A stretch of 64,000 nt of DNA, from NCBI GenBank assembly GCA_044892525.1, contig CM097885.1:12154001-12218000 (forward strand), read 5' to 3'. The stretch is from Schmidtea polychroa. Its lineage: Eukaryota. The position numbers were made by a program, and so were the translations under genes. The first letter of the stretch is position 1. Each line of letters opens with the position of its first letter. Below, one piece after another: positions 37,128 through 48,855 of the stretch. The notes under the pieces were generated by a model, which saw only the letters and a program-made list of their open reading frames with translations, ran no database searches and was not told the DNA's origin.

Positions 37128-38180
37128 ATGACAGAAACGAATTTTGAAAAAGGTTTGAAGATTCAAACCTGTGAAATGCACTGTTGCGGAGAACCAGTGA
37201 GAATTCTAGAAAAGATTGAACCGCCAATCACCTTTCCGAAAGATTCTGATATATTACAAAAACGGAAATATTTTTCTGAAAATTTTGATTTCATCAGAAA
37301 AATGGTAATGTTAGAACCAAGAGGTCATGGAAATATGTTTGGAGTGCTACTAACTGAACCCAATCGAGACAGTGGATCAGATTATGGGGTGTTGTTTATG
37401 AATACGATTGATCTGTTACCGATGTGTGGGCATATTACAATTGCGGTTGGGAGATATTTGTTGGAAAAGAATTTGATAAAGAAGGAAATACCGGAAACCA
37501 AGATCAAACTCGATTGTTCTTGTGGGCTGGTTGTTGTTTCTGTCGAATGGGACGGATTTAGAGTTGGTAATACAAAGATTTTAAGCGTTCCTTCTTTTAT
37601 TGAAAGCTTGGATTATGAGGTTTTGGTTTCAGAATTAGGACTTAAAGTAAAATGTGATATAGCGTTTGGGGGAAACTTCTTTGCGATTATATCGGCAAAG
37701 GAATTAGGAGTTAATTTTGAAACCGATTCCCAATCAGTAATTATAGAAAAGGGAATTCTTTTATTTAATACATTAAAAAAACAATTTCAGTTTTCTCATC
37801 TAGTATCCAATGAAATTGAATATTTATACGCAGCTATTATCATAGATAAAGATGAAATTAATAAACACACAAAGCTACTCTGTGTTTTTGGGGAAGGGTT
37901 CTTTGATAGAAGTCCATGTGGATCGGGATCCACTGCCGTTACGACTTGTCAGTATTTCAGAAAGAAATTAAAATTGAACGAAACAATGGTTTCACAAAAT
38001 CCTTTCCTGGGAGAGCATTCAAGATTTTTGGCTACCCCAAAAGAGGAGAAAGCAATTATTACTGAAAATGGAAGCATCAAAAGTTTATTGGTTGAAATTA
38101 GTGGAAGAGCTTTTTTTACTGGTAAGTGTAATTTTACATTTGAAGAAACTGATTTTTTCAAATACGGATTTAATATTTAA
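37128..38180 (+). CDS. Proline racemase family protein (L3HYPDH-like scaffold, Cys/Cys racemase/epimerase type), intronless, nested antisense in eag intron
   Basis: 350-aa intact ORF with MHCCGEP, LEPRGHGNMFG, MCGH, DIAFGGNFFA, DRSPCGSG and C-terminal GF; AATAAA about 20 nt after the stop. Confidence 0.93.
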   Translation: MTETNFEKGLKIQTCEMHCCGEPVRILEKIEPPITFPKDSDILQKRKYFSENFDFIRKMVMLEPRGHGNMFGVLLTEPNRDSGSDYGVLFMNTIDLLPMCGHITIAVGRYLLEKNLIKKEIPETKIKLDCSCGLVVVSVEWDGFRVGNTKILSVPSFIESLDYEVLVSELGLKVKCDIAFGGNFFAIISAKELGVNFETDSQSVIIEKGILLFNTLKKQFQFSHLVSNEIEYLYAAIIIDKDEINKHTKLLCVFGEGFFDRSPCGSGSTAVTTCQYFRKKLKLNETMVSQNPFLGEHSRFLATPKEEKAIITENGSIKSLLVEISGRAFFTGKCNFTFEETDFFKYGFNI

Positions 38181-39932
38181 ATTGTAATTTTATTATTTTA
38201 ATAAATATTTCCCAAAATTTTATTTTTGTTATTTTTATTTCAACTTAAATAAATTTAATTAATTAATATTAATTAATTGATGAATAACTAATTTAATTAA
38301 AATGAAGTGCATTGTGATATTTGAAACTATTTCTAATGACATACTGGTTACGAGTTCATTTGGCTCTCATTAATGCTAAAAGGAGACTTGATAACAGTTG
38401 AGATTAAACTAATTGATCTTACATTCCTGTACAACATTGGTTCTCAATTTGAAGGTCATGACCCTTTAGGGATTGTCAATGTATTTTTAGGGAGTCGCGA
38501 AAATATTACTTATAATCCCTCGTCACGCCCTATTGTTTTAAAATTATATATTTCTTCGGTGAAATTATTTTATACCGAATTTAGTTTTGTTGAAATTGTT
38601 GAAAGCGTGAATTTGAATTTTTTGGTTTGAAATATCGCCAAACTTTTGGAAAGAAATTAAATGAGTCTTTTTGGAAAAATGGTTGAGAATCGTATCTGTA
38701 CAAGAAGCATACCACATTTATCCGGGTATAAAACAACATGTAAAGCAACAATCCCATAAAATTAAAACAAATGAAGCTTTAAAAATGTTTCAAAGTTAAA
38801 TAAAAACAAAAGTATTGTGCAATTAAAATATTTAAAATTTTTTCGAGAGCCTCTTTTAAGAAATCCGATTGTCGGAAACTTTTAACAAAAAGCACCTTTC
38901 TCTATAAAATGTTTAAAATTGTTAAAATTTAAGCTATTTTGCAGCATGTTTTTCATGCACTTAGAAAATAAGAAGCCATGAGTCTATCAATATACAAACT
39001 GTATAACATACAAAAATCATACAAAAACATACAATAATCAACATTGTAGTGATACATATTATTTTACGGGATTAAAGTGAAAAATTCTTCATTAATAATG
39101 ATTTTAATTACAAAATTCAAATTCTCTCATTTATTCTTAATATTCAAACAACTAAAACATTTGTAATTTTGACATTAAATCAGATATTGGCAACAAATAC
39201 TTTTTATTGATTTTAATATAAAATATACAAAATTTAAATAGTTATTTTAATTTAATTTAATTACTTGGAATTTAAAAGGCATTTTAGGAGTTCTGAAACA
39301 CAGTTTATGGTTTGGAATCTGTCAGGGTTAAATAAAACTATATCTTGAAAATGTGGTTGTTTGTTATATTATTTGCTAGTAAGGTATCAGTGCTTCTAGT
39401 TCTGAAAATCTAAAGTAGGCTTGTACAACTTGAGAAGCGTTGAGGGTTAACAATAATCATAATAACCCAAAAGTAATCATTAATTGACAGAAAACCCAAA
39501 ATTATTGAATATATTAAATTCCTAGTACACATTGGTATCATTTGCAATATAGATTAAATTTATTTTTTAAATATATCATTTTTTTTTGAAATTGTTAAGG
39601 AGAATTCTAGAAAATGTTTATGGTTCGCATTAAAAAAGCTGTACAGATCTGATTTAGAGACTTTTTCCAGTAATTATTTTTAATTATTTTTTTTTATTTC
39701 TTTTTATATGTAAATCAAGCATCTATTGTTTGACATACGAGTGAAACTCGTTTTTGTGCATATGAATGTATATATATATATATATATATATATATATATA
39801 TATATATATATATATATATATATATATATATATATATATATATATATATATATATATATATATATATATATATATATATATACAAATCAGCAATATTGTA
39901 TACTTACCTGGCGCGAAGAGAAATAGTACTGC

Positions 39933-39974
39933 ATAGTACTGGTGAGAGCGAAAAGCTGGAAACTAGTCTACTAT
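39933..39974 (+). pseudogene. Mutated hammerhead copy of the same family
   Basis: Same layout but core CTGGTGA and a mismatch at the base of stem II. Confidence 0.7.
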
Positions 39975-47206: not shown

Positions 47207-47285
47207 GTTGAGCATTGCATCGTCGAATGATATTGTCAAGAAATGTATTTTGTGGTGCTACTAAGCCTCTTCTAGATCCAGACAT
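47207..47285 (-). CDS. eag: eag K+ channel, first coding exon (PAS-cap)
   Basis: Hand translation gives [26 protein letters not shown], the KCNH PAS-cap motif [11 protein letters not shown]. It ends in a phase-1 donor (C|gttagt) matching the phase-1 acceptor at 22121. Not in the ORF track. Confidence 0.93.
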
Positions 47286-47802
47286 TGTAAAATTTCAATG
47301 AATTCAGAGCAAATATTTGAGTAAAATAAGTTCACAAGAATTCCTAAACTTTAATATCAAAATTGGAATATTCGAAAGATTAAAGAATCAGTTTATTTGA
47401 CATCTCGGTTGTAGTTAGAAGAGTCGTTAATTTTCAATCTACTGACAGCCTCCTATTAAGAACTCACTAACCTGATTTTGATTGGTCAATATTGTGTAAA
47501 TTATCTTTTCTTATAGAAAATTTTGATTGATTTTCAAAAAACCGTGCAAATGAAAATTGACTTGGAAATTCATTAAATTTAATAATTAATTCATCAAATA
47601 AGTTCCTCCGATATGCATTTTTGATATAATAATAATTCAAAATTTGGTAATGATGATGATGATAATAATAATAATAATAATAATAATAATAATAATAATA
47701 ATAATAATAATAATAATAATAATAATAATAATAATAATAATAATAATAATAATAAATGTATAAAATCGTAAACAAAATATATATTTAATTAATTTAATTT
47801 GA

Positions 47803-48855
47803 TTATAAATTAAAACCAAATTTGAAATGGTCATCCTCTTCGTATGTAAAGGTGGATTTGCCAACAAAGTATGCTCGTCCACTAATTTGTGCCTTGATAC
47901 ATTTAAATTCCGCATTCGAAGTTATTAAAATATTTTCTTCTAATGGAATTCCGAGGAAATTTGAATGATCTCCAAGGAGGGGGTTTCTAGTAATTTTCTT
48001 TTGCATTAATTTCAATTTATGAGAAAAATAATCTCGAGCGACAATTGCAGTTGTTCCTGATCCACAAGGACTTCTGTCAACAGATTCTTCTCCGAAGATA
48101 CAAAGAACATCTGTCGTGTCACTATTTTCATGATTTTCGGTTATTAATACTCCATATAGATAGGGGTTTGGATTAACCATTGATTGAGGAAACTTGAAGG
48201 ATTTTCTTAGAGTTTTCATTAACGAAATTCCATTCTCGATAATTTTATCTTTATTTGAAGAGTTAAAATTAGTTTTCAAATCTTCGGTTGATATAATTGC
48301 ATAAAAGTTTCCTCCATAAACAATATCACATTTTAAAGGAATTTCATACTGAGGAATGGAGACTTCGTAGTTTGTATTTAAAACAAAAGCTGGAACACTG
48401 TGAAATTTGGTTTTGCCGATTTTTTCTCCATCCCATTCAACGAACAATATCACCAAGCCGCATGGACAATCTAATTTGACTTTAGTTTCGGGGATTTCTG
48501 GAGTTATGAGATTCTTCTCCAACACATACCGACCAATTGCAATTGAAGCGTGTCCGCACATTGATGCGTAACCTGAAGAGTTTAAAAATAAAATCCCTAA
48601 ATCTGATCCACTGTTTTCATTAGGTTCAGTGATTATTACGCCAAACATATCTTTGTGACCTCTCGGTTCCAGCATTAGCATTTGTCTAATAAAATCGAAT
48701 TTTTCCGAAAAAAATTGCTCTTTATCTGAAATATCCAAGTGGTCAGGGAATCTTATTTTCGGTTCGGTACTTTCAAGAATTCTTACGGGTTCCCCGCAAG
48801 TGTGCATCTCACAGGTTTCTAACTTGTATCCGGTTGAGAACGTACAGTTTGTCAT
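47803..48855 (-). CDS. Proline racemase family protein, second paralogue (L3HYPDH-like scaffold, Cys/Cys type), intronless
   Basis: 350-aa intact ORF with MHTCGEP, LEPRGHKDMFG, GYASMCGHA, CPCGLV, FHSVPAFVL, YGGNFYA, DRSPCGSG; colinear with the 37128 ORF. Confidence 0.94.
   Translation of the reverse strand: MTNCTFSTGYKLETCEMHTCGEPVRILESTEPKIRFPDHLDISDKEQFFSEKFDFIRQMLMLEPRGHKDMFGVIITEPNENSGSDLGILFLNSSGYASMCGHASIAIGRYVLEKNLITPEIPETKVKLDCPCGLVILFVEWDGEKIGKTKFHSVPAFVLNTNYEVSIPQYEIPLKCDIVYGGNFYAIISTEDLKTNFNSSNKDKIIENGISLMKTLRKSFKFPQSMVNPNPYLYGVLITENHENSDTTDVLCIFGEESVDRSPCGSGTTAIVARDYFSHKLKLMQKKITRNPLLGDHSNFLGIPLEENILITSNAEFKCIKAQISGRAYFVGKSTFTYEEDDHFKFGFNL

Follow-up and report, generated by a model that had tools for sequence, protein, structure and literature searches.

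Two paralogous L3HYPDH-type proteins with a racemase-like pair of active-site cysteines in Schmidtea polychroa

The 64,000-nucleotide stretch analysed here (the window: Schmidtea polychroa, GenBank assembly GCA_044892525.1, contig CM097885.1, positions 12,154,001 to 12,218,000) contains two uninterrupted open reading frames of 350 codons, each encoding a protein of the proline racemase family in a single exon. Gene 1 (protein P0001) occupies positions 37128 to 38180 of the plus strand and gene 2 (P0002) positions 47803 to 48855 of the minus strand, so that the two are convergent (tail to tail) and 9.6 kb apart. Over profile positions 3 to 324 of 325, the proteins score 251 and 235 bits against the Pfam Pro_racemase model (PF05544), far above the cut-off of 27, so these matches are not due to chance. 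As the initial annotation had stated, both frames are intact and carry the motifs PRGHxxMFG (with Phe71), MCGH (with Cys100), and DRSPCGSG (with Cys264). Cys100 is encoded by TGT at 37425 to 37427 in gene 1 and by TGC at 48556 to 48558 (minus strand) in gene 2; by alignment, this first catalytic cysteine corresponds to Cys104 of human L3HYPDH, a trans-3-hydroxy-L-proline (T3LHyp) dehydratase, and to Cys130 of the Trypanosoma cruzi proline racemase. The second, Cys264, is encoded by TGT in both genes (37917 to 37919 on the plus strand and 48064 to 48066 on the minus strand), and its human equivalent is Thr273. Judging from these sequences, we put at roughly 0.6 the probability that the pair consists of intact L3HYPDH-clade proteins with both cysteines, of which at least the gene 2 product is likely a cofactor-free racemase or 2-epimerase acting most likely on proline, and that the cysteine pair is probably ancestral rather than regained.

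According to the literature, a Cys-Cys pair is characteristic of racemases and epimerases in this family, whereas a Cys/Thr pair is characteristic of T3LHyp dehydratases (PMC3958920); Phe at the R1 position (Phe102 of the T. cruzi racemase TcPRAC) and Phe at specificity site 5 (Phe290) mark proline racemases (PMC1964878; PMC4364671). Both window proteins have Phe at R1 (Phe71) and at site 5 (Phe254, replaced by Tyr254 in one gene 1 allele). By analogy with the characterised enzymes, the two cysteines and Phe71 would indicate racemase or epimerase chemistry, as had been suggested at the outset. The pair shares its Cys/Cys dyad, MCGH motif, R1 Phe, and site-5 Phe with proline racemases (EC 5.1.1.4), such as TcPRAC (1W61) and ProR of Acetoanaerobium sticklandii (7PB3). 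Gene 2 alone of the two also matches in full the MIII signature DRSPCGXGXXAXXA, which is found in 203 of 226 Cys-type relatives. A Cys/Cys dyad and Phe at site 1 are likewise common to the pair and TlProR of Thermococcus litoralis (6J7C), a bifunctional proline racemase and hydroxyproline epimerase. One pocket of TlProR accepts proline, 4-hydroxyproline, and 3-hydroxyproline, and this broad specificity depends on Trp241 (PMC4364671), the position of which is taken by Phe in the window proteins (Tyr in one gene 1 allele). AlphaFold models, with predicted local distance difference test (pLDDT) scores of 94.9 and 90.1, have the two-domain fold of proline racemases and DapF. Foldseek aligns them with 6R76, 7QPO, and 1W61 at template modelling (TM) scores of 0.80 to 0.88, the best folds being the T. 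litoralis and human T3LHyp dehydratases and the T. cruzi racemase.

A number of observations speak against assigning proline racemase activity to the pair. The R2 position, which is Cys or Leu in proline racemases (Cys270 of TcPRAC; PMC1964878), is Ala235 in gene 1 and Gly235 in gene 2, that is, of the dehydratase type. The pair also differs from the proline racemases in forming part of a separate clade (support 100/100) and in having GSG in place of GTG. With the NCBIfam proline racemase model PRK13969 the proteins score 216 and 209 bits, far below its cut-off of 556; this is a prokaryotic model, and a racemase-type archaeal control, P0126 (486 bits), falls below the cut-off as well. Both score slightly higher with the dehydratase model, and both replace a near-invariant Arg/Lys at position 271. 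In gene 1, the MIII signature is broken by Thr at its last place, Asn replaces the equivalent of human Asp74, so that the protein lacks the acidic partner of the Asp74-Arg270 salt bridge, Phe replaces Tyr192, and Asp-Leu replaces Gly95-Tyr96, a pair that is invariant in all 107 relatives compared. The Cys/Cys proteins of Bacillus anthracis and Vibrio parahaemolyticus display neither racemase nor 4-hydroxyproline epimerase activity (PMC1964878), and the family includes several promiscuous epimerase/dehydratases (PMC4113996). By analogy with such proteins, a Cys/Cys dyad does not by itself guarantee activity.

Other members of the family fit no better. The 4-hydroxyproline 2-epimerases (EC 5.1.1.8; 2AZP and 4J9W) have the same dyad and fold but only 21 to 25% identity to the window proteins, and they carry His at R2 with Ser or Val at R1 (PMC1964878), where the pair has Gly or Ala235 and Phe71. 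Human L3HYPDH, which belongs to the same clade, is the best PDB sequence match for gene 2 (E value, 1e-64). The equivalents of its Cys104, Met103, Ser275, and Tyr241 and of its Gly at R2 are found in the window proteins, and so is that of Cys137, a residue of a reported regulatory disulphide (Cys130 here; PMC9309405). Gene 2 retains the equivalents of Asp74, Met103, Cys137, Tyr192, Tyr241, and Ser275. The pair differs from the human protein, to which it is 30 to 35% identical, in having two paralogues, Cys in place of Thr273, and Phe in place of Tyr76; gene 1 additionally lacks the equivalents of Asp74 and Tyr192. By the residues compared, the pair falls outside the proline racemases proper (on account of R2 and the clade) and also outside the dehydratases (on account of the missing Thr and Tyr).

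It is conceivable, if rather unlikely, that the two proteins are T3LHyp 2-epimerases or bifunctional dehydratase/epimerases that break down collagen-derived 3-hydroxyproline and have little activity toward proline. The closest solved relatives, by both sequence and fold, are T3LHyp dehydratases, and Gly235, Tyr234, Ser266, and Met99, together with Tyr185 of gene 2, match the human pocket. A Thr-to-Cys mutant of human L3HYPDH epimerises T3LHyp (PMC3958920; PMC10875296), so the L3HYPDH scaffold is capable of epimerisation once two cysteines are present, and bifunctional dehydratase/epimerases exist in the family (PMC5144071). On the other hand, the pair has Phe where the dehydratases have Tyr76, and a Phe in the R1 position is said to keep out polar groups on the ring (PMC1964878); Tyr occupies R1 in all 59 Thr-type relatives.

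The proteins encoded by gene 1 and gene 2 are 54% identical in a gapless alignment and cluster with 100/100 support, which bears out the proposed lineage-level duplication. Identity at the three codon positions is 67, 76, and 47%, with a nonsynonymous divergence (dN) of 0.35 and a synonymous divergence (dS) of about 2.1; the pair is an old duplication under purifying selection. Gene 1 has a remodelled pocket, with Asn69, Asp95-Leu96, Pro98, Phe185, Ala235, and Thr273. The L3HYPDH-like motifs that had been attributed to both proteins (GYxSMCGHA, CPCGLV, FHSVPAFVL, and LYGxxIT) are found only in gene 2; the corresponding segments of gene 1 are DLLPMCGHI, CSCGLV, ILSVPSF, and LYAAII. A changed pocket suggests a changed substrate, and gene 1 is likely a diverged paralogue with a different specificity. 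The resemblance of its LLPMCGH and GFFDRSPC segments to actinobacterial proteins of the P0154 type is overruled as a sign of affinity by its 100/100 grouping with gene 2, and we read it as convergence or chance. An extra tunicate paralogue, P0240 of Styela clava, which retains both cysteines but has MCGE and an altered second motif, is a further example of a pocket remodelled in the wake of duplication.

The divergence of gene 1 also bears on a further possibility, which we consider improbable and which would apply most plausibly to gene 1: that one or both proteins have lost the chemistry, now handle a different substrate, such as pipecolate or some other cyclic imino acid, or are non-catalytic. 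Gene 1 alters several invariant or near-invariant residues beside the catalytic cysteine, departs from the MIII signature, and varies between alleles at specificity site 5. Inactive Cys/Cys members of the family are on record, as noted above, and an antiviral role, with no established connection to catalysis, is reported for human L3HYPDH (PMC10875296). Against such a loss, both copies retain Cys100, Cys264, His102, Asp260, Arg261, and the Gly motif even though synonymous sites are nearly saturated, and nearly every conserved residue is preserved in gene 2.

Sequencing runs offer a hint, but not proof, of unspliced transcription of gene 1; the runs concerned, X2 among them, were taken to be RNA by guess, none of them being recorded as such. 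Between 36400 and 39000, contigs from three such runs (two studies) span positions 37037 to 37936, 37066 to 38151, and 37973 to 38213, with almost bare flanks; the X2 contig crosses 37066 to 38151 without a skip. In run X6, 29 of the 30 bins across the interval show depth. The gene 1 alleles in the run contigs differ from the window at 11 sites, 6 silent and 5 replacement, none of them at either cysteine; runs X1, X2, and X6 list no difference at the Cys264 codon. Two of the replacements are found in runs X1 and X2, namely, the above-mentioned Phe254Tyr (position 37888) and Ser131Pro (position 37518), which restores the usual CPC. For gene 2, four runs likewise guessed to be RNA contain 0.49 to 0.66 of the sampled words, which was not used as evidence of expression. 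Searches for pathway partners did not enter the argument either. A mu-crystallin/ornithine cyclodeaminase homologue had no match in the genome, and none of the 14 flavoproteins scored among 42 candidates was recognisable as a D-amino acid oxidase, an absence that tells little.

The distribution of the second cysteine was assessed in the best 120 matches to each gene (out of 1,637 for gene 2 and 987 for gene 1), which yield 64 proteins from 56 named animal taxa. Among these matches, Cys is found at the second site in 34 of the 56 taxa and in 34 of the 37 outside bony vertebrates, which rules out uniqueness of the Cys/Cys pair to this animal and contradicts the initial view that Cys/Thr is usual in animals. 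It is present in all 15 molluscs, all 8 cartilaginous fish, 3 of 4 echinoderms, both sponges, both amphioxus entries, both tunicates, 1 of 2 annelids, and a single anemone. Thr occupies the site in all 19 bony vertebrates and, outside these, in a leech and a brittle star; a lone hemichordate, left unscored by the pattern, has Thr on inspection. Flatworm, arthropod, and nematode sequences are absent from the named matches among the best 120 per query. Because the queries themselves carried Cys, the sample leans toward Cys, which detracts from its value for the ancestral state but still leaves it sufficient to reject rarity of Cys/Cys. A homologue from the fungal group Glomeromycota likewise carries Cys.

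The eight cartilaginous fish proteins (P0013, P0014, P0023, P0031, P0032, P0039, P0059, and P0102) all combine Cys/Cys with Tyr at R1, and their contrast with the uniformly Cys/Thr bony vertebrates is a clean natural pair for the switch. Phe at the position of human Tyr76 is found in 15 of the 64 animal proteins. Among 107 relatives, the combinations of R1 and second-site residues are 19 Phe/Cys, 29 Tyr/Cys, 59 Tyr/Thr, and no Phe/Thr, so that the Phe71 type occurs only with Cys; counted on independent pairs, which are too few, the covariation of Phe71 and Cys264 is not significant (sign test, p = 1).

Invertebrate and cartilaginous fish Cys/Cys proteins (for example, Asterias P0004, Mactra P0006, Styela P0044, and Chiloscyllium P0013) form the pair's own group. 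They often have Phe at R1 and are often duplicated, with 3 copies in Ylistrum, 2 each in Mactra and Solemya, and several in Branchiostoma; the window proteins are only 35 to 40% identical to them and have indels and substitutions of their own. Most of the retrieved animal proteins bear the automatic name "trans-L-3-hydroxyproline dehydratase." Published accounts describe the members of the metazoan/Pezizomycotina clade as all having threonine (PMC2459174), list cofactor-free eukaryotic proline racemases only for trypanosomes (PMC10851380), where the enzyme is a bacterial transfer, and credit a few eukaryotic racemase-like enzymes with all critical residues (PMC4417235). A literature search that excluded subscription journals found no characterised natural Cys/Cys animal member. 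Of the two circumstances that, according to the initial annotation, would together undercut its proposal, wide occurrence of Cys/Cys in invertebrates and prior characterisation, the data thus bring out only the first. The Cys/Cys subgroup is widespread and apparently uncharacterised, with the gene pair as one ordinary member. The locus is not special for its cysteines; its particular feature is the remodelled second copy.

The main phylogeny was built under a mixture model from 42 rows chosen out of 236 proteins: the 2 window proteins, 23 named animal proteins, 7 Thr-type rows assumed to be bacterial, and 10 racemase-type outgroup rows. A branch with 100/100 support sets the gene pair, together with the L3HYPDH-type sequences, apart from the bacterial racemases, and a 355-row FastTree agrees in recovering a 152-row L3HYPDH-type clade with a support of 100. 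The proteins are accordingly closer to animal L3HYPDH than to bacterial or trypanosomal racemases, as had been recognised from their motifs. Within the L3HYPDH-type clade, the pair is the deepest branch, and because this branch is long and compositionally odd, its exact placement is unsure. An all-animal clade that includes the pair is not rejected by the approximately unbiased test (p-AU, 0.147), and forcing the pair into a clade of molluscs and annelids is rejected only marginally (p-AU, 0.046). The seven presumed-bacterial Thr-type rows nest within the animal sequences beside the vertebrates (97/82), which reflects either transfer or an artefact. No relatives above 42% identity were found among 1.84 billion representatives of 50% identity clusters. 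One Cys/Cys protein with Tyr at R1, P0239, has several indels in common with the pair and may come from a related lineage, though it does not group with the pair in a quick tree.

With the tree rooted on the Cys-bearing bacterial racemases, Cys is found in all deep rows and three Cys/Thr changes are needed. Cys in both the outgroup and the deep rows makes it the parsimonious ancestral state, and we consider Cys/Cys probably ancestral to animals and Thr derived, although the number of changes alone cannot tell gain of Cys from its loss. On the accepted species tree, Thr would have been gained in bony vertebrates, the leech, the brittle star, and the hemichordate; the gene tree, in which sharks are nested among Thr rows, would instead make the shark Cys a reversal. 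Neither tree requires the pair to have reverted from a dehydratase, and the suggestion that its activity was built on a dehydratase scaffold is at odds with the Cys in the deepest rows.

An alternative origin, in our estimate a very improbable one, would be the regain of Cys in this lineage by a Thr-type dehydratase ancestor or the acquisition of an intronless gene by horizontal transfer. It could account for the lack of introns in both genes, the lack of close relatives, the deepest branching of the pair, and the borderline rejection of the mollusc-plus-annelid placement, and the nesting of sharks among Thr rows indicates that reversion can be inferred at least there. However, Cys predominates across eight animal groups, the branch between the pair and the bacterial racemases has 100/100 support, and the all-animal clade is not rejected. 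The GC content at third codon positions, 28 to 30% in the pair, is within the 21 to 32% range of two host exons, and another host metabolic gene (L005) also has its entire domain in one open frame.

The genomic setting argues in the same direction. The contig that holds the window is of chromosome scale (genome size, 781 Mb), and the genes are interleaved with an intron-bearing eag/KCNH potassium channel gene on the minus strand. The first coding exon of the channel gene (79 nt, 47207 to 47285) lies between the paralogues and joins the PAS exon (22121 to 21859, with best PDB matches to KCNH1) in frame through a GT..AG junction; its ion-transport exon, identified by a domain match, is at 1863 to 1411. 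This places gene 1 in antisense orientation within the 25-kb first intron of the channel gene. The KCNH start codon lies 518 bp downstream of the end of gene 2, so the channel promoter may overlap the 3' end of gene 2. Contamination is ruled out by the chromosome-scale contig, by the interleaving with a spliced gene, and by a contig of run X6 that is identical to the window over 36667 to 38140 (0 differences); the host of both genes is an animal. Genome searches with gene 2, with the Pfam model (E value, 0.1), and with a Thr-type brittle star protein (E value, 1) recover only gene 1 and gene 2, so the animal appears to lack a Thr-type copy or a third family member, although a copy split into many short exons could escape such searches.

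The flanks of gene 1 and gene 2 display no homology beyond AT-rich chance. In the interval between the genes, units of 29, 13/40, and 55 bp form arrays that run in mirrored order (39998 to 41530 and 44895 to 46361) and include a 230-nt inverted repeat of 96% identity (40001 to 40230 and 40340 to 40569); these look like a foldback or non-autonomous DNA element. Elsewhere in the window, an unbroken 336-codon frame for a Tc1/mariner-like transposase (DDE_3 and HTH domains) is found inside the channel gene at 18713 to 19723 (plus strand), and a broken hAT-like transposase remnant with a weak hAT dimerisation match at 10248 to 10574 (plus strand). A segment at 34906 to 36351 (plus strand) has no Pfam match but resembles another broken hAT-like remnant. 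A 992-bp unit is repeated in tandem at 60381 to 62748, with the first two copies identical across 991 bases, which represents either a recent duplication or an assembly artefact. In the genome (G000), three loci (L006, L007, and L008, on contigs C4 and C3) are presumably copies of mitochondrial glycerol-3-phosphate dehydrogenase, two of them 22 kb apart.

If gene 2 encodes a proline racemase, its substrate would, by homology to the T. cruzi enzyme, bind between the two domains, which would close around it. The Cys100 thiolate would take the alpha-proton from the L-form and Cys264 would return a proton on the opposite face, with the roles of the two cysteines reversed for the D-form. Phe71 and Phe254 would line the ring, as in proline racemases, and Gly235 would leave room, as in L3HYPDH, so that a side activity on T3LHyp would be expected. 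Gene 1 would have arisen by an old local inverted duplication followed by change of the pocket. The physiological role may lie either in salvage of dietary or microbial D-proline or 3-hydroxyproline or in production of D-proline.

The free amino acid racemases known from animals to date depend on pyridoxal phosphate. We tentatively suggest, at somewhat less than even odds, that outside bony vertebrates the majority of animals, among them sharks, possess a native cofactor-independent proline racemase or hydroxyproline epimerase that is mis-annotated as a dehydratase, that the human dehydratase is the product of a Cys-to-Thr switch that occurred several times, and that in S. polychroa the ancestral enzyme has been divided between a proline racemase and another racemase whose specificity is new. 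The interest of the pair rests in this overlooked Cys/Cys subgroup rather than in the locus itself. Were the Cys/Cys proteins of animals to act as proline racemases or hydroxyproline epimerases, hundreds of database annotations would be wrong, the boundary between sharks and bony fish would represent a natural one-residue experiment in switching a racemase to a dehydratase, and animals would possess an endogenous route to or from D-proline.

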